Below are positions 12,518 to 63,998 of a DNA stretch of 64,000 nt, in pieces (positions within the stretch are counted from its first letter, which is position 1; every line of letters begins with the position of its first letter). The notes beneath the pieces were generated by a model. The model made no database searches, was not told the origin of the DNA, and worked only from the letters and a program-made list of their open reading frames with translations. The position numbers and the translations under genes are program-made. Source of the stretch: Candidatus Saccharimonadota bacterium. GTDB taxonomy: Bacteria; Patescibacteriota; Saccharimonadia; Saccharimonadales; Saccharimonadaceae. The stretch is taken from the NCBI GenBank assembly GCA_017515285.1, contig JAFWGN010000007.1, positions 48,921 through 112,920 on the forward strand, in the 5' to 3' direction.

Positions 12518-13966
12518 TTAGTTTAGGGACGAACATTCGTCGGCGAGTGCCGCCTTGGCGCTGTCGAATTTCAGGTAGAATTTTACAAGATAGTCCATGG
12601 TTTTCTTGAGGTTTTCTACGAAATCGACATGGTTTTCGCCGCGAATGATGATACTATCGCCTCCGTGACATACCCGGAAACATTTGGCAATGCTCGGGCT
12701 GGGGAGGAGATAGTGTCTGCTGGTCTTGAGGCTAACCTCGACGACGATTTCATTTTTGCCGGTGCCGGTGTACATTCTGTAGGTTCGGGTCTGGGTATAA
12801 ATACCGTGTTCCACGAGGATTTCTCGCGCGTCGGTGTAATGGTTGGACGAGAGATAATCTTTTATGGCGCTCTCGACGCGGTTAAAAGCGGACGTAGTCT
12901 CAATGTCCTGGCGGAGTCGTTCGATTTTCTCCATGAAGGCATTGGTTTCTGAAAGTAAATCCAGATCGTAATTATAGGCGCGATACTGAAAAACGAACGT
13001 CGTGTCGGAGAATTTGAAATAATCTTTAATGTCGGGAAAACGTTCGTTAACAAGACGAATGAACTGTTCACGGTTTTTCGCATAAGACATTGCGAGATTG
13101 ACTTTTTCGTGTTTCTCGCGCTCTTCATCGCCTCTCTGCTCGAGGCAAGAATAAGTCTCGTAGAAGATAATCTTATCGTAGATGGCCTGGTAGATTCCGC
13201 GGTCCGTTTCGGGCTGTGGGACGAGGGAGACGCGATATTCGCGAGTCTTGGTGTAGTTTACGGCATCAAATACCGGTAAACTAGTGATAGGAAAAATCAT
13301 GAAGAACCCGTCGTGTCCCGCAAAGTCGGCACCCGTACCGTGTATCAAATTCGAATCGTTGAACTGGAGAGTGACGAGGCCGTCGTTGCGGAAGCCGTAC
13401 TCGCCGTCGCTACAATAATCGTATTCGACAAGGATTTCCGAGGCGTCTTCCGGTCGGAGTGTTTCTTCGAAAACGATGGCATCGTAGGATGCCTTTGCGC
13501 GGTGTTTGCCGAAATGGATGCCCTTGAGGCGAATCCCGTAACCGTCATGATATGAAAAGGCTTCTTTGGTGAAGTTTTCTTCAAAATAGTAGTTGCAGCT
13601 GCGAATCATTCTGATCCAAGCTGGCGACGAGAGAAGATAGCCTCCGAAATCGTAGCAATCAGAAGACAGCGATCCGCGTTCTTCTAATGGGTGTGAGCCA
13701 ATAGAGGCGTAGGGAGCGGGTTTTCTGAAAGCGACGATAAGTGAAGGGGTATCGACGTTCTGGTAGCCGGTTTTGAAGACGAAGTTTGCATTTTCGCCGT
13801 GGCAAGAGTGGGCTTTCGAGTCCGAAGCGGGTAAAGCGCTTCTTGTGAAGTGAAAGCCGCCACTTTTAACGGCGACAGAGGCCACGTCGGCGTATTCCAG
13901 GAGAAGGTCTTTCATGTCGGGAACGTAGGGATAATCAGCAATTTTAAGAGGGGTTCTGAAGTCCAT
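12518..13966 (-). CDS. Hypothetical cytoplasmic protein (482 aa), no recognisable domain
   Basis: Long ORF with a good RBS (gagaaaggaagtactactATG) at the second in-frame ATG. No TM segments and no motif I can assign. Confidence 0.5.
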   Translation of the reverse strand: MDFRTPLKIADYPYVPDMKDLLLEYADVASVAVKSGGFHFTRSALPASDSKAHSCHGENANFVFKTGYQNVDTPSLIVAFRKPAPYASIGSHPLEERGSLSSDCYDFGGYLLSSPAWIRMIRSCNYYFEENFTKEAFSYHDGYGIRLKGIHFGKHRAKASYDAIVFEETLRPEDASEILVEYDYCSDGEYGFRNDGLVTLQFNDSNLIHGTGADFAGHDGFFMIFPITSLPVFDAVNYTKTREYRVSLVPQPETDRGIYQAIYDKIIFYETYSCLEQRGDEEREKHEKVNLAMSYAKNREQFIRLVNERFPDIKDYFKFSDTTFVFQYRAYNYDLDLLSETNAFMEKIERLRQDIETTSAFNRVESAIKDYLSSNHYTDAREILVEHGIYTQTRTYRMYTGTGKNEIVVEVSLKTSRHYLLPSPSIAKCFRVCHGGDSIIIRGENHVDFVENLKKTMDYLVKFYLKFDSAKAALADECSSLN

Positions 13967-14108
13967 AGTAGTACTTCCTTTCTCGAAAAATAAATGTGCG
14001 TCCATCAGGTCAGTCGACAGACCGAACTATTATAACACATTTTTGGCGATTTGAAAAGCCTTTTTTGGAAGCCCGCTGGTTAAGCGGGCGGGCAGAGTGG
14101 CGGGGGGA

Positions 14109-15707
14109 CTAAGCGGATTTTGATTTGATGATTGGGAAAGGGACGGCTTCGCGGCCAGAGACACCCTCGAGAAGCCAGAAGTTTCGCTCACTGTTCCCCC
14201 AACCGCAGGCGGGAGGCATGCCGTATTCGAGCATCTCCACGAAGTCCATGTCGAGCATCTGCGCTTCGGAGTCGCCGGCGTCGCGGGCGGCTTGTTGTTC
14301 CTTGAAACGTTCGAGTTGGTCGAGTGGGTCGTTTAACTCGCTAAAACCGTTCCCCATTTCGGTTCCGGCGATGACGGGGTGGAAGCGTTCGGTGACGCGG
14401 GGGTTTTCGGGGTTTTTCTTGGCGAGAGGAGAGAGTTCAAGTGGTTCTTCGACGAGCCAGAACGGGCCGGCGGAGCGCTTTCTGATTAGTTTCCAGACGT
14501 GGTCGATGAGGTGAGGGGTGGTCGCGGTCTCTAAAGTGTGCTCGAGAGATTTTTTGGCGGCGCTATCGTTCTTGTCTTCGGATTTTTTGAATTCGTCGCG
14601 GAGGATTTGTTTTAGTTGTTCCCTTTCGGGGTTAAAAACATCGACTCCGTATTCTTGTTTTAAAAGGTCGGCGTATTTGACGCGAGGCCAAGGTTTCCCG
14701 CCGTTTTCGAGGTCGATGTCGAAATCTTGGACGTGGAACTTCAAAGTCCCCCAAGTTTCACTCGCGACGTATTTAATCATTTCTTCATAAAGGGTCATGC
14801 CGTCTTCGTAATCTTCGAAAGCGGCGTACGACTCAAAGGCGATGTGTTCCGGGAGGTGTTCGTCGTCGATGCCTTCGTTTCTAAAGCGCGGGCCGATGTC
14901 GAAGACTTTTTCGAAGCCGCCACCAAGGAGACGCTTTAAGGGGAGTTCGTGGGAAATTCGGAGGTAGAAGTCTTCATCCAAGGCGTCCATGTGGGTCGTG
15001 AAAGGGGTAGCGTCGGCGCCGCCGGTTGTGTGTTCTAAAACGGGGATGTTGATTTCGATAAAGCCGTGGTCGAGCATAAATTTGCGGGTGGCTTGCCAGA
15101 ATTTGCTTCTTCTAATGAGGCGTTCGCGAACTTCGGGGTTGACGTTCATGTCAACGTAGCGGCGGCGGTAGCGTTCTTCCTTGTTGGTGAAGCCATCGCG
15201 GCCGGGGAGCGGGCGGAGGGTCTTTCCGAGGAGCCGTAATTCATTTGAGAAAACGGAGATTTCGCCGGTTGAGCTCTTTCCAACTTTTCCGGTCGCCTCG
15301 ACGAAGTCGCCGGAGTCGAGAAGCTTCAAAGAACGAACGCCGAAACGCCCGTCCTTCAACCCTGTTCGCTCGCGCCCGTCGTTACGGGGCTCGCTCACTT
15401 CGAAATTCTCGTAAGAATTTCGGGACACGGTTTCAGTACGGACTTTTTCGGCGTCTTTTACCTGCATGAAAATCTGGATTTCGCCGGAATCGTCGCGGAT
15501 TTTAACGAAGGCGAGTTTACCGAAAGAGCGAATAGCGGTGATACGACCGGCGACGGTGACGGTTTTTTCGTTCTTCTCGTCGAAGTTACCAAGGATTTCG
15601 CCGATTTTGGTGTCGCGGAAGGATTTTGCCGGATACGGGTCGATATGTAGCGCTTTGATTTCTTCGAGCTTGCGGAGACGCTCGTTTCTGTAATCTTCTA
15701 TTGTCAT
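14109..15707 (-). CDS. lysS: Lysyl-tRNA synthetase (class II) carrying an in-frame inserted peptide in the anticodon-binding domain
   Basis: Class II core motifs (FYLRISHELPLKRLLGGGFEKVFDIGPRFRNEG; GGADATPF). There are about 30 extra residues (..VSEPRNDGRERTGLKDGRF..) in the N-terminal OB domain, encoded by the repeat at 15369-15393. Confidence 0.95.
   Translation of the reverse strand: MTIEDYRNERLRKLEEIKALHIDPYPAKSFRDTKIGEILGNFDEKNEKTVTVAGRITAIRSFGKLAFVKIRDDSGEIQIFMQVKDAEKVRTETVSRNSYENFEVSEPRNDGRERTGLKDGRFGVRSLKLLDSGDFVEATGKVGKSSTGEISVFSNELRLLGKTLRPLPGRDGFTNKEERYRRRYVDMNVNPEVRERLIRRSKFWQATRKFMLDHGFIEINIPVLEHTTGGADATPFTTHMDALDEDFYLRISHELPLKRLLGGGFEKVFDIGPRFRNEGIDDEHLPEHIAFESYAAFEDYEDGMTLYEEMIKYVASETWGTLKFHVQDFDIDLENGGKPWPRVKYADLLKQEYGVDVFNPEREQLKQILRDEFKKSEDKNDSAAKKSLEHTLETATTPHLIDHVWKLIRKRSAGPFWLVEEPLELSPLAKKNPENPRVTERFHPVIAGTEMGNGFSELNDPLDQLERFKEQQAARDAGDSEAQMLDMDFVEMLEYGMPPACGWGNSERNFWLLEGVSGREAVPFPIIKSKSA
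15360..15420. repeat. GC-rich hairpin repeat (RPE-like) copy inside lysS coding sequence
   Basis: A 25-nt core ctcgcgcccgtcgttacggggctcg (15369-15393) is identical to 49063-49087 in dnaX. It is followed by a perfect 9-bp-stem hairpin cgaaattct cgta agaatttcg. Confidence 0.6.
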
Positions 15708-26856: not shown

Positions 26857-26910
26857 GGGAACCTCAACTAGATTTACTTCCTCTATAATATCACAAAAAT
26901 AGACATAAAA

Positions 26911-27077
26911 AAAGTAGTTTACGTTTCTTTCTCAACGTGAGCCTCATCGCAATCGTAAAAATAACCTTAACAGGCTGTTTCTCCGTGCGGAGACAAGCTC
27001 GTGCTCGAAACAGTGTCAAGGTTATTTTTACTGTTGGTTTCGGCTCTTTGTTGTTTCGAAAGAAAGTAAACTACTTT
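26911..27077. repeat. Long imperfect palindromic repeat family B, copy c (between secY and rplO)
   Basis: A 70-nt core (about 26957-27029) is near-identical to 63882-63953. The outer arms (aaagtagtttac / gtaaactacttt) form a perfect inverted repeat. Confidence 0.7.
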
Positions 27078-27535
27078 TCTTCTTTCTTTGCCCTCATCGG
27101 GACGGGAACCTTTTTGAAGTCGCCACCGGCCTTTTTGACGGCTTCGATAGCGGACTTGCTGGCGAATTGGGTTTCGAGATTGATTTTCGATTTTAGTTCG
27201 CCGCGGGAGATAACTTTGACCTTGACGAAGGGGCTAGAAATGTAGCTTTTTTCGGCGAGGAGGAAGTTATCGACGTTGCCTTTAAGGTCGTTTAAGACGT
27301 CGGTATAGACGACTTCGGCCTTAGCGTGCAAGGTTTTGAAGCCTTTGAGCTTCGGGATGGCTTGCATGATGGCGCGTTGGCCACCCATGAAACCGGTTGG
27401 CATCTTTCTGTGGCCGGTGCGGGCTTTTTGACCCTTGGTGCCACGGCCGGCGGTTTTACCTTGGCCGGCGGAGATGCCGCGGCCCTTGCGGATCGGACGG
27501 GTGTTTTTATAAACTTCGAGTTCGTTGTACTTCAT
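27071..27535 (-). CDS. rplO: 50S ribosomal protein L15
   Basis: ...GRGISAGQGKTAGRGTKGQKARTGH... L15. Confidence 0.95.
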   Translation of the reverse strand: MKYNELEVYKNTRPIRKGRGISAGQGKTAGRGTKGQKARTGHRKMPTGFMGGQRAIMQAIPKLKGFKTLHAKAEVVYTDVLNDLKGNVDNFLLAEKSYISSPFVKVKVISRGELKSKINLETQFASKSAIEAVKKAGGDFKKVPVPMRAKKEEK

Positions 27536-29163: not shown

Positions 29164-29259
29164 TTGTTTCCTTTAGTTTAATAATATCCCCGGTATTTTA
29201 TCACAGAACGGGGAATTTTTCAAGGGCGAAATGGAAACCGCTTCAAGAATTATCTTCCG

Positions 29260-29359
29260 CTTCCCTCGGCCCTAGGTCTTCTTATTTTGAACATAGAGAA
29301 CTAAAGAACTAGATTTATATCTTGGCAATAGATTATTGAAGACCTAGAGCGGAAGGAAG
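29260..29359. repeat. Palindromic repeat family A, copy 2
   Basis: See the copy at 352-451. It is followed at 29401-29436 by a tail motif (gagctcggcttctagggcttgcggttgagc) that also follows copy 1. Confidence 0.85.
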
Positions 29360-29730
29360 CTTAAATGCGGGGCGAGCTTCAGTTCTGTTTTTGTCCAGGT
29401 GCCGAGCTCGGCTTCTAGGGCTTGCGGTTGAGCGCTCTGCGGTCGTGCGACTCCTAGTCCGGTTTTCGTCTGGTGCTCCGCGAACCCTATAATTTTGACA
29501 CATGTTCTCGGTCTTCGACCTCGACCCGCTCGTCGTTTCGGAAAGCACAGAGCGAGCTCTGGCTTTCTCTCAACTCCTCGGGGTTTCACTCAATCCTCGC
29601 AAATGCGCCTCGGGTAACACCGGCCGTCGATTTGCTCGGATGAGGAAAATGTCGTCAAAATTATCGGGTCTTGTGCGCAATCGACTAAAACCGAACTAGT
29701 CGTCGCCTCAAACAGTTAGTTGTTAAAATG

Positions 29731-43568: not shown

Positions 43569-44774
43569 ATGGAAATATTGTTGGTAATACTTATAGTGAT
43601 AAATGTGATTTTAACAGGGGTGGTGCTGTTGATTGGAGCGCGGAGTAAAAATGCGACAAAAAATGATGATGAGACCGCGAAAAACGTTGAAAAATTGGTT
43701 GAGGAGAATGTGAAACTTGCAGAAAAGTTGGTAAAGGCAGACACGAAGATTGAGGTTTTGAGTAAGAAGGTGGATGAGCTGACGCCGAAGATTTCGAGCG
43801 AGTTTAGAGAAAACCGGAAGGAGATTTCGGAGAATTTGAGTGGGATTTCCAAGGCGGTTGATACACGGGTGAAGGAGCTTCAGGCGTCGAATGAGAAGAA
43901 GTTGGAGCAGATGAGAGAGACGGTGGATGAGAAGTTGCAGGCGAGCGTCGAGAAGCGATTTAATGAGAGCTTTAAGCAGATTTCGGGGCAGCTCAGTCAG
44001 GTTTATCAAGGGCTTGGGGAGATGAAAAATCTTGCGACGGGAGTGGGTGATTTGAAAAAGGTGATGGAGGGAGTGAAGACGCGAGGGATTTATGGCGAGG
44101 TACAATTGGGAGCGATTATTGAAGATATTTTGACGCCGGCGCAGTATCTTACGAATACTTTAATTAAAAAAGGCAGTTCTGACCGCGTGGAGTTTGCGGT
44201 GCGGATGCCGGGGAAAGAGGCGGAAGTGTTGCTTCCGATTGACTCGAAGTTCCCGGTCGAGAATTATCAGCGGCTTCTAAAAGCGTATGATGAGGGGTCG
44301 AAGGCGGAGATTGAGACGTACCGGAAAGCTTTACGCAAAGATGTTGTAGAGCAGGCGAAGAAGATTCATGATAAATATATCGAAGTGCCAAAGACGACGG
44401 AGTTCGCGATGATGTTTGTGCCGACGGAATCGCTTTATGCTGAGATTTTACGGATTCCGGGGGTGGACGAGGAGATTCGGCAGAAGTATAGTATTTCCCT
44501 GTCAAGCCCGGCGACGCTGCCCGTGATGCTTAATGGGCTTCTTATGGGGTATCGGAGTGTCGCGATTGAGAAACGAAGCGCAGAAGTTTGGAAGATTCTC
44601 GGGGGAGTTAAGGCGCAGTTTGGGAAGTTTGGCGACCTTCTCGAAGGGGTTGAGAAGAAACTTTCGGAGAGTGCGAAGAAGATTGAAGACGCCAGAAAGC
44701 AGAGCCGAAGAATCGAGAAGACGATGAATGATGTCGAATCGTTGCCGGATGATAAGACAGAATTGCTCAGTTAG
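43569..44774 (+). CDS. rmuC: DNA recombination protein RmuC
   Basis: N-terminal TM, coiled-coil, and an RmuC nuclease-like C-terminal domain (VEFAVRMPG...LPIDSKFPVE). The start was chosen at the ATG with TATAAT 7 nt upstream; the alternative is 43560. Confidence 0.75.
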   Translation: MEILLVILIVINVILTGVVLLIGARSKNATKNDDETAKNVEKLVEENVKLAEKLVKADTKIEVLSKKVDELTPKISSEFRENRKEISENLSGISKAVDTRVKELQASNEKKLEQMRETVDEKLQASVEKRFNESFKQISGQLSQVYQGLGEMKNLATGVGDLKKVMEGVKTRGIYGEVQLGAIIEDILTPAQYLTNTLIKKGSSDRVEFAVRMPGKEAEVLLPIDSKFPVENYQRLLKAYDEGSKAEIETYRKALRKDVVEQAKKIHDKYIEVPKTTEFAMMFVPTESLYAEILRIPGVDEEIRQKYSISLSSPATLPVMLNGLLMGYRSVAIEKRSAEVWKILGGVKAQFGKFGDLLEGVEKKLSESAKKIEDARKQSRRIEKTMNDVESLPDDKTELLS

Positions 44775-44778
44775 AAAT

Positions 44779-44956
44779 TATAAAAGTCCATTTTCTCGAC
44801 GGGGTCGCCACCGTCGCTAGCGCGACTTCGCCGCAGTCGTCAAAAAATACCTTAATAGTCGGATTCTCGACATCGGACTTTCGAGTCTCGAATCCGTATC
44901 AAGGTATTTTTGACTGCTGGGCGTGGCTCTTTAATGTCGAAAAAAAGACTTTTATA
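44779..44956. repeat. Long imperfect palindromic repeat family B, copy a (between convergent rmuC and recR)
   Basis: The arms share about 40 nt on each side with 63848-63998 (ttttctcgacggggtcgccaccgtYgctagcgcgac...; ...tatttttgactgctgggcgtggctc...). The whole element is about a 180-bp imperfect palindrome. Confidence 0.75.
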
Positions 44957-44960
44957 ATTT

Positions 44961-45566
44961 CTATAATTTCGTCCTGTTGTTCAGGGCGGCGGAGAGGGTG
45001 ATTTGGTCGGCGTAGGCGAGGTCCACGCCGAGGGGAAGGCCGCGGGCGAGGCGAGTGATTTTTAGGTCTTTGAATTGCTCTTGAAGGAGTTTTTGGAGGA
45101 GGAGGGCGGTGGACTCACCTTCGACGGAGGGGTTGGTTGCGATGATGACTTCCTTGACGGCGTCTTCCTCGACGCGGGCGAGGAGTTCTTTGATGTGAAG
45201 TTTATCGGCGGTTATTCCGTCGATTGGGGAGAGCCGGCCGCCGAGGACGTGGTATGTGCCACGGTATTGCTTTGTGGATTCGATGGGAAAAATGTCGAGA
45301 GGTTCTTCAACGACGAGGATGCTGGACTTGTCGCGGGAGGGGTCGGCGTAGAACGGAGAGACAGATTCGGTGCTGTCGATGAGGGCGAAGGTCTTGGGGC
45401 AGGACTTGACGCCAGAGTGAAGGTGGCTTAAAGTTCCGGCGATGGAGTCGGAGATTTGGGGGTTTGAGCGAAACAAAAAGTAAGCATAACGTTCCGCCGT
45501 GCGCGGGCCGACGCCAGGGAGGTGTCCTAGCGCCTCAATTACATCCTCGAGAGCTTTGGGGAGCAT
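44961..45566 (-). CDS. recR: Recombination protein RecR
   Basis: HhH (LPGVGPRTAERYAYF), a C4 zinc finger region, and a Toprim domain. Confidence 0.95.
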   Translation of the reverse strand: MLPKALEDVIEALGHLPGVGPRTAERYAYFLFRSNPQISDSIAGTLSHLHSGVKSCPKTFALIDSTESVSPFYADPSRDKSSILVVEEPLDIFPIESTKQYRGTYHVLGGRLSPIDGITADKLHIKELLARVEEDAVKEVIIATNPSVEGESTALLLQKLLQEQFKDLKITRLARGLPLGVDLAYADQITLSAALNNRTKL

Positions 45567-48773: not shown

Positions 48774-50178
48774 TGTCGTTATTTACCTCCTGTGCTCCTC
48801 CCATTATATCAGAAATTTGTCGAAGTTCGGGAGATTTTTCGAGCTCGTCGGGGTTGTGAATCACGAAATCCTTGTTAAAATTACTTTTTAATATCTCGCT
48901 GTTGCTGGGGCGTTCGAGGATTGCTTTTGTTATTTTCTTTGGAGGGTAAATATCAATTTGGGTATCTGATTCGATGATTTTGCATTTTGAGAGCTGTTGC
49001 TTCAAAGCCGGGGTGAGAGTTTCTGCCGCCTTGCGCAAACCTTCGCTTGCGTCGCCGGCGTCCTCGCGCCCGTCGTTACGGGGCTCGGCGCCTAATACTC
49101 GGTCGTGACCTCCGTGTTGCGCCGCAATCGAAGGATTTGCTCCGGCGGCTTCGTCGCCTTTTAGGTCGTCTCGGAAGACTTGTGGATTTTCTTTAATGTG
49201 AGAAAAAGGAGTTTTCGATTCACTTTCAACATTCGTCCCGCTCGTTTTTAATCCGTCCAAAAAGGCTAACAATAACTTTGCTTCGGGGTAGGGGGCGGAG
49301 ACGGTGGGGAGGGAGGCGAGGAGGGGGAGAAGTTCCGGAGTGGGGGAGGAGACGATGCGGGAGAGGGCGGAGGAGGCGATGGACTCAGGTTTGAGGCCGG
49401 AGTTTAAGAGGTCTTTTAGGATTTTTGTGATTTCGGGGGAGTTGGCGGAAGTGTAGGCGGAGAGGAGGCTAGAGATGGCGGAGTCGAGCGGGAGGCCGAG
49501 GCAGTTTGCGACGTCTTGCTCGGAGATTTGGGCTTTGTCGTTGTCGAGCGTTGAGATCTGGTCGAGGAGAGAGAGGGAGTCGCGGAAAGAACCGCCGCCT
49601 TTTTCGATAATTAGATTAAGCGCAGAATCTTCGATTTTGATGTGTTCTTTTTCGCAGATTTGCTTTAAGTGAGGGAGCATGACGTCGGGCGGGGCGAGGC
49701 GAAAAGTAAAAACCTGGCTTCGGGACGTTATGGTTATCGGGACTTTTTCGAGGTCGGTGGTCGCGAGAATGAAAACAACGTGCGCCGGTGGTTCTTCGAG
49801 GGTTTTTAAGAGCGCATTAAAGGCGGATTTCGAAAGCATATGCACTTCGTCGATGATATAGACCTTAAACCTCCCCTCCGAGGGCGCAACCATGGCTTTT
49901 TCGCGGAGGTCGCGGATGTTATCGACGCCGGTGTTCGAGGCGGCGTCGATTTCGATGATGTCGAGATAACTGTCTTCAAGTTCATATTTGAAGCCGTTGA
50001 TTTCGTGCGCTAAGATGCGGGCGACGGAAGTTTTCCCGCAACCGCGAGGGCCGGTAAAAAGATAACTATGGGAGACTTTGCCGGATTTTAAGGCGCCGTC
50101 TAGGGGCCTTGTTACTTGGTCTTGCCCGACGACTTCGGCGAGGGTTTTCGGGCGGTATTTGCGATAGAGAGCAAGCAT
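48754..50178 (-). CDS. dnaX: DNA polymerase III subunit gamma/tau
   Basis: GPRGCGKTS Walker A, DEVHML, and an SRC clamp-loader motif region. The C-terminal region carries the inserted peptide ..EPRNDGRE.. Confidence 0.9.
   Translation of the reverse strand: MLALYRKYRPKTLAEVVGQDQVTRPLDGALKSGKVSHSYLFTGPRGCGKTSVARILAHEINGFKYELEDSYLDIIEIDAASNTGVDNIRDLREKAMVAPSEGRFKVYIIDEVHMLSKSAFNALLKTLEEPPAHVVFILATTDLEKVPITITSRSQVFTFRLAPPDVMLPHLKQICEKEHIKIEDSALNLIIEKGGGSFRDSLSLLDQISTLDNDKAQISEQDVANCLGLPLDSAISSLLSAYTSANSPEITKILKDLLNSGLKPESIASSALSRIVSSPTPELLPLLASLPTVSAPYPEAKLLLAFLDGLKTSGTNVESESKTPFSHIKENPQVFRDDLKGDEAAGANPSIAAQHGGHDRVLGAEPRNDGREDAGDASEGLRKAAETLTPALKQQLSKCKIIESDTQIDIYPPKKITKAILERPSNSEILKSNFNKDFVIHNPDELEKSPELRQISDIMGGAQEVNNDNGGIPF
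49040..49125. repeat. GC-rich hairpin repeat (RPE-like) copy inside dnaX coding sequence
   Basis: 49063-49087 is identical to 15369-15393 in lysS. 49046-49120 aligns with the intergenic copy at 58800-58890 (tcgcttgcg...gcgcc(c)taatactcggYcgtRRcctccgtgttg). Confidence 0.6.
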
Positions 50179-58770: not shown

Positions 58771-58799
58771 TTTTGATATTATAACATAATACTCGCTTG

Positions 58800-58892
58800 C
58801 GGTCGATAGCTCGTTCGCCGACACGGGTCGCGCCCGCCCGCCGTCGCGGGGGTCGCGCCCTAATACTCGGCCGTAGCCTCCGTGTTGTCGGC
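58800..58892. repeat. GC-rich hairpin repeat (RPE-like), intergenic copy
   Basis: Aligns along its length to 49046-49120 (dnaX copy). It contains cccgccgtcgcggggg and shares taatactcggccgtagcctccgtgttg. Confidence 0.55.
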
Positions 58893-58894
58893 GA

Positions 58895-59052
58895 GACGAG
58901 ACTATCGAACCGCTCGCAACTTCCGTCGAGTCCTCTGAAGCCGTGAAAACAAATCAAACCAGACCCTCGATAAGACGAGACTATCGAACCGCTCGCAACT
59001 TCCGTCGAGTCCTCTGAAGCTGTGGAAACAAATCGAGCCCAGAATAAGCCAG
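58895..59052. repeat. Tandem direct repeat, 2 x 79 bp
   Basis: gacgagactatcgaaccgctcgcaacttccgtcgagtcctctgaagcYgtgRaaacaaatc... repeated with 3-4 mismatches. Confidence 0.8.
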
Positions 59053-63748: not shown

Positions 63749-63808
63749 CTTCCCTCGGCCCTAGGTCTCGCATAGAGGACTTGCATGGAGACCTAGGGCG
63801 GAAGGAAG
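63749..63808. repeat. Palindromic repeat family A, copy 3 (short 60-bp form)
   Basis: Same termini (cttccctcggccctaggtc ... gacctagggcggaaggaag) with an internal deletion relative to copies 1 and 2. Confidence 0.75.
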
Positions 63809-63826
63809 CGTGCGAAAAAAAATCTT

Positions 63827-63998
63827 GATAAGCCTTTTCTCGACGGGGTCGCCACCGTTGCTAGCGCGACATCGCCGCAGTCGTCAAAATAACCTTAACA
63901 GGCTGTTTCTCCGCGCGGAGACAAGCTCGTGCTCGAAACAGTGTCAAGGTTATTTTGACTGCTGGGCGTGGCTCCTTATTGTCTCGAAAAGGCTTATT
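63827..63998. repeat. Long imperfect palindromic repeat family B, copy b (reaches window end)
   Basis: Arms homologous to 44779-44956 and core identical to 26957-27029. Outer arms gataagcctt / aaggcttat pair with each other. Confidence 0.75.

Follow-up and report, generated by a model that had tools for sequence, protein, structure and literature searches.

A family of palindromic repeats lying in frame within housekeeping genes of Saccharibacteria

We describe a palindromic repeat element that lies in frame within two conserved genes, lysS and dnaX, of a Saccharibacteria (TM7) genome, with a third copy between genes. The window analysed here is the whole stretch of 64,000 nt comprising positions 48,921-112,920 of the forward strand of contig JAFWGN010000007.1 (Candidatus Saccharimonadota bacterium, GCA_017515285.1; GC content 50%), and homologs of its LysS appear under the annotation lysine--tRNA ligase in Candidatus Saccharibacteria. 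The three copies probably belong to a family of selfish DNA elements, short, palindromic and non-autonomous, which has spread through animal-gut Saccharibacteria (Ca. Nanosyncoccus and relatives) and is tolerated in surface loops of host proteins. A preliminary description of this DNA had proposed a mobile palindromic element inserted in frame in essential genes, analogous to the Rickettsia palindromic elements (RPEs). The proposal is supported, and coding copies are always open in the frame of their host. The element had been pictured as a 25-nt core plus a hairpin, whereas it spans about 120 nt, has site-specific arms and is read in five frames and both orientations.

The 25-mer CTCGCGCCCGTCGTTACGGGGCTCG is present at exactly two places in the window, one in lysS and the other in dnaX (0 expected from 100 shuffles). 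Both copies lie inside minus-strand open reading frames (ORFs) and share the reading E-P-R-N-D-G-R-E, as first reported. By profile search of the inner unit, the window holds just three copies of the element (Table 1). Copy 1 is positioned in the N-terminal OB-fold anticodon-binding domain of LysS, has the predicted translation, roughly, ...DAEKVRTETVSRNSYENFEVSEPRNDGRERTGLKDGRFGV... and amounts to a net gain of 90 nt over the empty ortholog L127/P0006 (here, Lnnn labels denote genome stretches and Pnnnn labels denote LysS homolog proteins). The span originally assigned to it, 15338-15420, covers only part of the palindrome. The perfect 9-bp hairpin described with it does exist (CGAAATTCT-CGTA-AGAATTTCG), not following the element but as an internal part of it, termed P2 below, and this P2 type recurs in L099 and L124/L125. 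Copy 2 lies in the variable linker ahead of the C-terminal domain of DnaX, has the predicted translation, roughly, ...EAAGANPSIAAQHGGHDRVLGAEPRNDGREDAGDASEGLRKAA... and has about 75 nt in common with the LysS-loop copy of L001/P0041. Copy 3, absent from the earlier list, is located upstream of a dihydrouridine-synthase-like gene; it has the core variant GACCCCCGCGACGGCGGGCG at 58831-58855 and shares about 57 nt (near 58831-58887) with the dnaX copy at 81% identity. All three copies fold into a common shape with both RNA and DNA parameters, which for copy 1 consists of the outer stem, P2 and the core hairpin. The z-scores range from -5.6 to -6.0 (copy 1, -5.56 for the DNA fold; copy 3, -5.97), and none of 200 shuffles is as stable. 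The same intergenic region as copy 3 also contains an adjoining tandem direct repeat of 67 nt (58894-58960 and 58973-59039; 94% identical, period 79).

The unit shared throughout the family is about 80 nt long and comprises a short closing stem (TYYGAGG ... CCGARAA) around a subfamily-specific 5' hairpin and a near-invariant GC-rich core hairpin, GAGCCCCGTAACGACGGGCGCGA (core hairpin sequence GCCCCGTAACGACGGGCGC). At each site this inner unit is flanked by a site-specific inverted repeat of 20-27 nt, so the whole element forms a hairpin or cruciform of about 119 nt. The median palindrome is 119 nt long, with most copies at 110-126 nt. The two arms can be aligned over about 27 nt, with 83% Watson-Crick pairing, and in 74 of 81 copies the outer arms outscore the 99th percentile of controls taken at random positions. 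Segments of 240 nt centred on the copies have a median folding energy of -86 kcal/mol, compared to -52 kcal/mol for controls. The predicted shape is a three-way junction of a long outer stem (P1), the 5' hairpin (P2), whose sequence defines the subfamilies, and the core hairpin (P3, GCCCCGT-AACG-ACGGG(C)GC). The core columns of P3 are invariant in 84 aligned copies, and the base of the stem shows compensatory exchanges (GC 46 versus CG 26 at one pair; CG 53, GC 10 and UA 8 at another). The diverged copies of L098 and L044 carry double compensatory variants, CCCTG..CAGG. P2 is strong in some subfamilies, reaching 9 bp in the lysS type. As a family-wide hairpin it was rejected, the fixed 38-nt region being no stabler (-8.7 kcal/mol) than shuffled sequence (-8.1 kcal/mol). 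RNAalifold, run on the sequence alignment of the 84 copies, recovers the core hairpin alone, since the arms, being site-specific, do not line up. A YTACGA/TAACGA-like motif is common to the loops of both inner hairpins, and the GC-rich inner unit is kept in genomes of 36-54% GC. A ribozyme was also considered and set aside, no consistent hammerhead-type core being visible by eye. One intergenic copy (L012:6743-6882) has an extra hairpin of about 30 nt (GCTCGCCGAAGGCGGGGCGTAGCC...) nested within P2, which indicates that the element itself can accept insertions. Some other intergenic copies, such as L007:5593-5732, run directly into a T run (…CCAGTTTTTT), and these could double as intrinsic terminators.

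A scan of one genome per bacterial or archaeal species with a slightly degenerate core, GASCCCCGYRACGRCGGGCG, as query returned at least 119 stretches. The family-wide counts reported here, and the figures derived from them, refer to the matches listed and are lower bounds. At least 78 usable stretches of 36-54% GC contain the core. Nearly all titles shown for these low-GC stretches name metagenome-assembled genomes of Candidatus Saccharibacteria or Ca. Nanosyncoccus, and the samples are of ruminant, other animal and human origin. The preliminary description had allowed that the 25-mer might occur at the two window sites only, with no flanking homology; instead, the shared unit of about 80 nt is found in at least 88 places in the low-GC stretches, the window and L001, and a profile of the inner unit matches at least 102 copies in 785 kb. 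A further 40 stretches from high-GC genomes (e.g., Streptomyces, Burkholderia) have no element architecture, and, as they lack surrounding similarity, they represent chance matches. A phage origin was rejected as well. The seven viral-contig matches are all to high-GC phages without element architecture, and several are a prim-pol-like DPRNGGRE coding motif. In the IMG/VR phage contigs L130, L132 and L133, the core pattern falls on the conserved coding motif ..LDIDPRNGGRETLAQLE.. of high-GC phage genes that look like primase-polymerases, and the resemblance to the EPRNDGRE reading is chance convergence. Two contigs are labelled as Clostridia metagenome-assembled genomes. L057 (CAMOUZ010000017.1, GC 0.56) matches the inner-unit profile over positions 7-63 (E = 5e-7) and may be a mis-binned Saccharibacteria contig or a case of transfer; L042 (JAFZOL010000061.1, GC 0.60) matches around the core only.

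The genes that harbor the element are nearly all housekeeping genes, with 66 host ORFs matching 75 Pfam families. Class I aminoacyl-tRNA synthetases account for 12 host ORFs, the GTPase domain MMR_HSR1 for 8 and P-type ATPases for 5. ArgRS, LepA and GatA-type amidase are represented by 4 each, DNA polymerase I and FemAB by 3 each, and LysRS and MnmA by 2 each. Some genes have two copies (L036, L028). [quoted passage not shown]

At least 69 of the 88 copies are situated in stop-to-stop frames that span 150 codons or more and extend at least 40 codons to either side of the element, and several others are found no more than 30 codons from a gene end and are still open in frame. This genic share of 78% by the strict criterion is barely depleted relative to the 88% of bases that fall in such frames (p = 0.007). 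Five frames are in use, yielding EPRNDGRE (fwd0, 29 copies), SPVTTGA (fwd1, 20), SRPSLRGS (rev0, 9), LAPVVTGL (rev2, 7) and RARRYGA (rev1, 3). The sixth frame, fwd2, normally reads CCG-TAA or CCG-TGA and hence stops; its sole user is the copy in L014, a core variant without the stop. The chance that 69 insertions would never use the stop frame is (5/6)^69, or about 3e-6. Because the stop-containing frame is used only where a variant removes the stop, the element appears to be translated. Moreover, among copies outside long ORFs no element-split gene was found.

These data bear on two explanations that we consider scarcely credible. In the first, the element is removed before or during protein synthesis, through intron-like RNA excision or ribosome bypassing. 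Some yeast mitochondrial genes contain 'byp' elements with such behaviour, and the present element resembles them in being GC-rich and palindromic, with a long stem that joins the flanks of the host gene. Removal would tolerate stops and frameshifts, however, and none is seen: every genic copy is open and in frame, the stop frame is avoided and there are no split genes, so this explanation is disfavoured. In the second, selection acts on the protein, with a peptide module such as EPRNDGRE conferring an interaction or localisation property. Both genic copies in the window do use the same frame, which is also the commonest (29 of 69), and the commonest peptides are hydrophilic and suited to surface loops. 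Against such a module, the five frames and two orientations encode unrelated peptides, the DNA is conserved beyond the need of any one of them and intergenic copies retain the same core. That five different peptides occur, in both orientations, indicates selection on the DNA rather than on the peptide.

The LysS loop provides the most detailed view of filled and empty sites. Of 120 Saccharibacteria homologs at 69-89% identity, 94 carry only 11-16 loop residues at the insert position, e.g., ..FMQQEDPQDGLFNTKRLKLLD.., and 22 carry an insert of 30-67 residues. The claim that LysS is some 30 residues longer at exactly this loop holds against the empty orthologs and, judged by this alignment, the insert is lineage-specific. 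It is not a conserved protein segment of LysS orthologs, as the 22 long inserts differ among themselves in sequence and frame, and some are even unrelated palindromes. The inserts of P0001, P0041, P0067, P0073 and P0100 contain the core in the same frame as in the window, and that of P0053 contains it in another frame, ASPVTTGRS. The empty ortholog in L127 has no hairpin at the site (minimum free energy -8.5 kcal/mol). Clean empty sites are also found in IleRS, LeuRS, MnmA, ValRS and DnaX, including an L007 DnaX without the segment that bears copy 2. In an AlphaFold2 model of LysRS, which is mediocre overall (mean predicted local distance difference test score, pLDDT, of 66.8), insert residues 86-118 have pLDDT of about 31 and no secondary structure, and they are placed between OB strands with pLDDT of about 90. 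The model is consistent with a tolerated surface loop, although a low pLDDT does not prove one, and the lack of structure in the insert is a further point against a functional peptide module.

Palindromes unrelated to the present element occupy the same LysS loop in L002/P0004 and L126/P0002. The one in L126 has a minimum free energy of -54 kcal/mol and encodes ...GEKCPFEGSKTWPSGPERPENGPSTASEP..., and the insert common to L002-L004 is a palindrome of about 170 nt whose centre is unlike that of the present element. The loop appears to be a hot spot for several kinds of palindromic insertion. A module of 20-23 nt, TTCCGAGACGACCTAAAAGGCGA, adjoins copy 2 in dnaX (about 49157-49180, + strand) and is otherwise found only in the LysS-loop insert of L002-L004 (P0004; L002:10298-10317 and the same site in L003 and L004). 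It looks like a second family of coding palindromes, with a half-remnant in dnaX.

Evidence for mobility comes from copies that agree at the centre and disagree in their arms. In 12 pairs with inner units at least 97% identical, arm identity is at background level (0.5-0.65 versus a background of 0.52), the sole exception being a true orthologous pair. The inner units of L016 and L044 are 100% identical in different genes and species. The window LysS and its closest relative, in L124 (89% protein identity), have the same inner unit and entirely different arms, each pair being self-complementary. Orthologous loops in different species are occupied in differing orientation, frame or subfamily, as in LepA (fwd1, fwd1, rev1, rev2) and a GatA-like amidase (fwd0, rev0, rev0, fwd0), and decayed copies and clean empty sites are found side by side in orthologs. 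This same-loop occupation in different orientations, frames and subfamilies, together with the decayed copies, points to repeated activity.

Comparison of filled and empty sites offers some insight into the origin of the arms. In seven of eight comparisons the palindrome is longer than the net gain by 14-37 nt, a difference that typically equals about one arm: 14 nt for L036 versus L099 (IleRS site 1), 21 nt for L014 versus L058 (MnmA site 2), 24 nt for L110 versus L026 and 27 nt for L110 versus L015 (both LeuRS), 27 nt for L074 versus L063 (ValRS), 28 nt for the window LysS and about 37 nt for P0053 versus P0050/P0062 (LysS). In all five readable cases (window LysS, P0053 LysS, MnmA site 2, IleRS site 1 and LeuRS), the arm on the 3' side of the core, read in core orientation, preserves the pattern of host residues seen in empty orthologs, and the other arm has no counterpart there. 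It is quite plausible, if slightly short of probable, that one arm was already in place as host flank and the other was copied from it in inverted form by fold-back or template-switch synthesis at or after insertion. A more specific scheme is tentative. The unit of about 80 nt might insert by copying 20-27 nt of flank, always 3' of the core, in inverted form to the other side, with the help of an enzyme that recognises the core hairpin. Each insertion would then build its own site-specific palindrome of about 119 nt and, if this were true, the target would be duplicated in inverted and not in direct form, a mark of transposition that has not been described among bacterial repeat elements. Alternatively, the arms may belong to the element and diverge by fast compensatory turnover. 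The longest direct repeats across the junctions follow the same distribution as at random positions, the boundaries being fuzzy enough that a duplication of 2-3 bp is still possible, and no conserved flanking target motif was detected at the junctions. Wobble-type mismatches in the arms show a marginal trend towards the core-forward strand (104 versus 77, p = 0.053).

The site-specific arms could also be taken to mean that the hairpins arise in place, by local replication errors at permissive loops, with the shared core due to convergence or gene conversion. Palindrome-correcting template switching is a known mutational process, and the unrelated palindromes in the LysS loop of L002 and L126 would fit such an origin. 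Nevertheless, inner units of about 80 nt that are 97-100% identical in different genes and species cannot arise independently, and inner-unit subfamilies are common to several genomes. We therefore regard replication error as highly improbable for the hairpins as a whole and disfavour it as their sole origin; it may be the source of the arms.

A host benefit at the RNA level deserves more weight than these explanations, and is still improbable. According to this idea, the element is a functional structured RNA in mRNAs or untranslated regions, serving, for instance, as a hairpin with a regulatory role, a site for RNase III or a terminator. The near-invariant core hairpin with compensatory changes in its stem, the three-way-junction architecture and the terminator-like T runs after some intergenic copies (L007) are features that such an RNA might have, and the orientation of the copies favours the host gene's sense strand (50 forward versus 19 reverse, p = 2e-4). 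Even so, both orientations occur inside genes, and wobble-type arm mismatches do not favour the sense strand of the mRNA (80 versus 73, p = 0.63). Rfam 15 reports only a tRNA in the window at the gathering threshold and no matches to the lysS copy even at E <= 5, and a 27-bp stem in 75 unrelated gene families follows no common regulatory logic. Furthermore, the element is absent from most orthologs of every host gene examined, which argues that no host gene depends on it.

The selfish-element explanation would account for these observations as follows. Copies would land in genes about as often as between genes. A genic copy would persist only if the net insertion is a multiple of three, the frame through the element is free of stops and the extra residues, some 30-40 of them, fall in a permissive surface loop. 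A tolerated copy would simply be translated within the protein, as proposed for LysRS and DnaX in the window. The repeat family with its architecture, the lineage-specific presence and absence, the avoidance of the stop frame and the near-identical inner units with unrelated arms are observed directly; from these, we infer mobility in trans by some enzyme. That the mobilising activity is a single-strand hairpin-recognising one, of the HUH/Y1 type, is a guess, which we hold even more loosely than the flank-copying scheme.

Several points weigh against this explanation. No transposase or other mobilising gene was identified in the data, which consist of genome stretches and not whole genomes, and all compared data derive from metagenome-assembled genomes. 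Among the pairs compared, there is no fresh insertion beside a near-identical empty allele. The closest filled/empty LysS pair, P0053 versus P0050/P0062, has 94% protein identity outside the loop and only 81% identity in DNA, the best of all pairs, and for this reason the origin of the arms is not proven. The arm polarity count of 5/5 is small, and in the eighth filled/empty comparison, at the ValRS N-terminus, palindrome length exceeds net gain by only 4 nt. The recurrent occupation of the same loop could partly reflect recombination between species instead of independent insertion. That the core hardly varies among genomes of 36-54% GC is a hint of some constraint in addition to selfish persistence, and the orientation bias is unexplained. 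Finally, translation of the element as part of the host protein is deduced from sequence constraints only.

RPEs are the closest parallel among known elements. They are palindromes of 105-150 bp with a predicted long stem-loop, and in-frame fusion to conserved genes is seen for 19 of the 44 copies in R. conorii. By description, every RPE encodes a conserved peptide and has terminal inverted repeats of about 12 bp; different RPE groups are sometimes found at the same locus in orthologs, no transposase is known, and for one enzyme that contains an RPE both translation and activity were demonstrated (PMC2229807, PMC10969869, PMC3767692). An RPE-containing guanylate kinase has reportedly been compared with and without its insert. 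Like the RPEs (RPE-1 to RPE-10) and the protein-coding palindromic repeats of Wolbachia, the Saccharibacteria elements are palindromic repeats of about 100-150 bp with a long predicted stem-loop, present in dozens of copies in the small genome of a host-dependent bacterium. Many are in frame in conserved housekeeping genes, which are left undisrupted, and orthologous sites sometimes hold different subfamilies. Unlike the RPEs, they reside in a phylum of the candidate phyla radiation, Saccharimonadota, they use five frames and both orientations instead of one conserved peptide each, and they combine a conserved centre with site-specific arms in place of conserved termini. Their genic share is also higher, at about 78-85% versus roughly 40-45% for RPEs in R. 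conorii (19/44). In behaviour the element is an analogue of the RPEs, as far as a comparison by description only can tell; nothing suggests homology, and shared ancestry is unlikely.

Other repeat families are less similar. The element shares with MITEs (Correia/NEMIS, ERIC, RUP, BOX, Coxiella QMITE1 and cyanobacterial MITEs) a small size, a non-autonomous nature and a high degree of structure. MITEs have conserved terminal inverted repeats and usually direct target duplications such as TA, whereas the termini of the present element differ at every site and no duplications beyond chance are seen. REP/REPIN-RAYT (HUH Y1) and IS200/IS605-derived elements are hairpin-based and thought to move as single-stranded DNA, and a strand or orientation bias is expected of them. 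Like these, the present element is hairpin-based and has no terminal inverted repeats and no target duplications, and the YTACGA/TAACGA-like motif shared by its inner loops could suit a hairpin-binding enzyme. MITEs, too, are reported to be fused in frame with host ORFs on occasion (PMC10969869, PMC2229807). Repetitive extragenic palindromes (REPs) are essentially extragenic sequences of 20-40 nt with a GTAG or CGTC tag, and REPINs have conserved arms and a variable loop (in part from PMC3733652). The present element differs from them in being mostly genic, with a conserved centre and variable arms.

Translated palindromic repeats in essential genes have so far been seen as peculiar to Rickettsia and Wolbachia. 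Saccharibacteria likewise depend on hosts and have reduced genomes, with most copies genic, and the finding suggests that such a phenomenon arises repeatedly where a small genome, weak selection and a shortage of intergenic space come together. The resulting lineage-specific inserts of 30-40 residues in aminoacyl-tRNA synthetases, polymerase subunits and GTPases have consequences for the alignment, annotation and structure prediction of proteins from the candidate phyla radiation and for its phylogenomic markers, and they are usable as strain-level markers. The combination of a conserved centre with site-specific arms is a mechanistic puzzle and the most novel aspect of the family.

Table 1. 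Copies of the palindromic element in the window, their parts and their host genes (positions are those of the window)
Feature	Position	Strand	Basis
Host gene lysS, class II lysine--tRNA ligase, 532 aa	14109..15707	-	ORF; homologs so named, with PF01336 and PF00152
Copy 1, whole palindrome in lysS, 118 nt	15337..15454	-	Arms by inverted-repeat alignment; RNA and DNA folds
Copy 1 conserved core (reverse complement CGAGCCCCGTAACGACGGGCGCGAG), forms hairpin P3	15369..15393	-	Exact 25-mer match
P2, 5' inner hairpin of copy 1, perfect 9-bp stem and 4-nt loop	15401..15422	-	Folding
Host gene dnaX, DNA polymerase III tau/gamma-like, 474 aa	48754..50178	-	ORF; orthologs in L080 and L007 by tblastn
Copy 2, whole palindrome in dnaX, 125 nt	49025..49149	-	Arms by inverted-repeat alignment; fold z-score -5.99
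Copy 2 conserved core, identical to copy 1 core	49063..49087	-	Exact 25-mer match
Copy 3, intergenic palindrome, 115 nt	58799..58913	-	Direct-repeat families D4 and D19; arms; nhmmer E = 5.5e-8

Long palindromic repeats are generally abundant in the genome from which the window derives. An intergenic hairpin repeat family unrelated to the element, CTTCCCTCGGCCCTAGGTCT ... AGACCTAGRGCGGAAGGAAG, is present at 351-454, 29259-29362 and 63749-63809; two of its copies are 98% identical over 104 nt, and no open frame runs across the copies. Further unrelated intergenic palindromes of about 190 nt are located at about 26900-27090, 44770-44965 and 63830-63990. These have minimum free energies of -70 to -118 kcal/mol, and each is bordered by AT-rich inverted repeats of 23-25 nt. 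Downstream of lysS, a 495-aa ORF of unassigned function occupies 12518-14005 on the minus strand. Its place is taken in relatives by an EcoRI-type methylase and a GmrSD/HNH protein (L002) or by only a 172-aa ORF (L124), and the spot looks like a variable, defence-island-like region.

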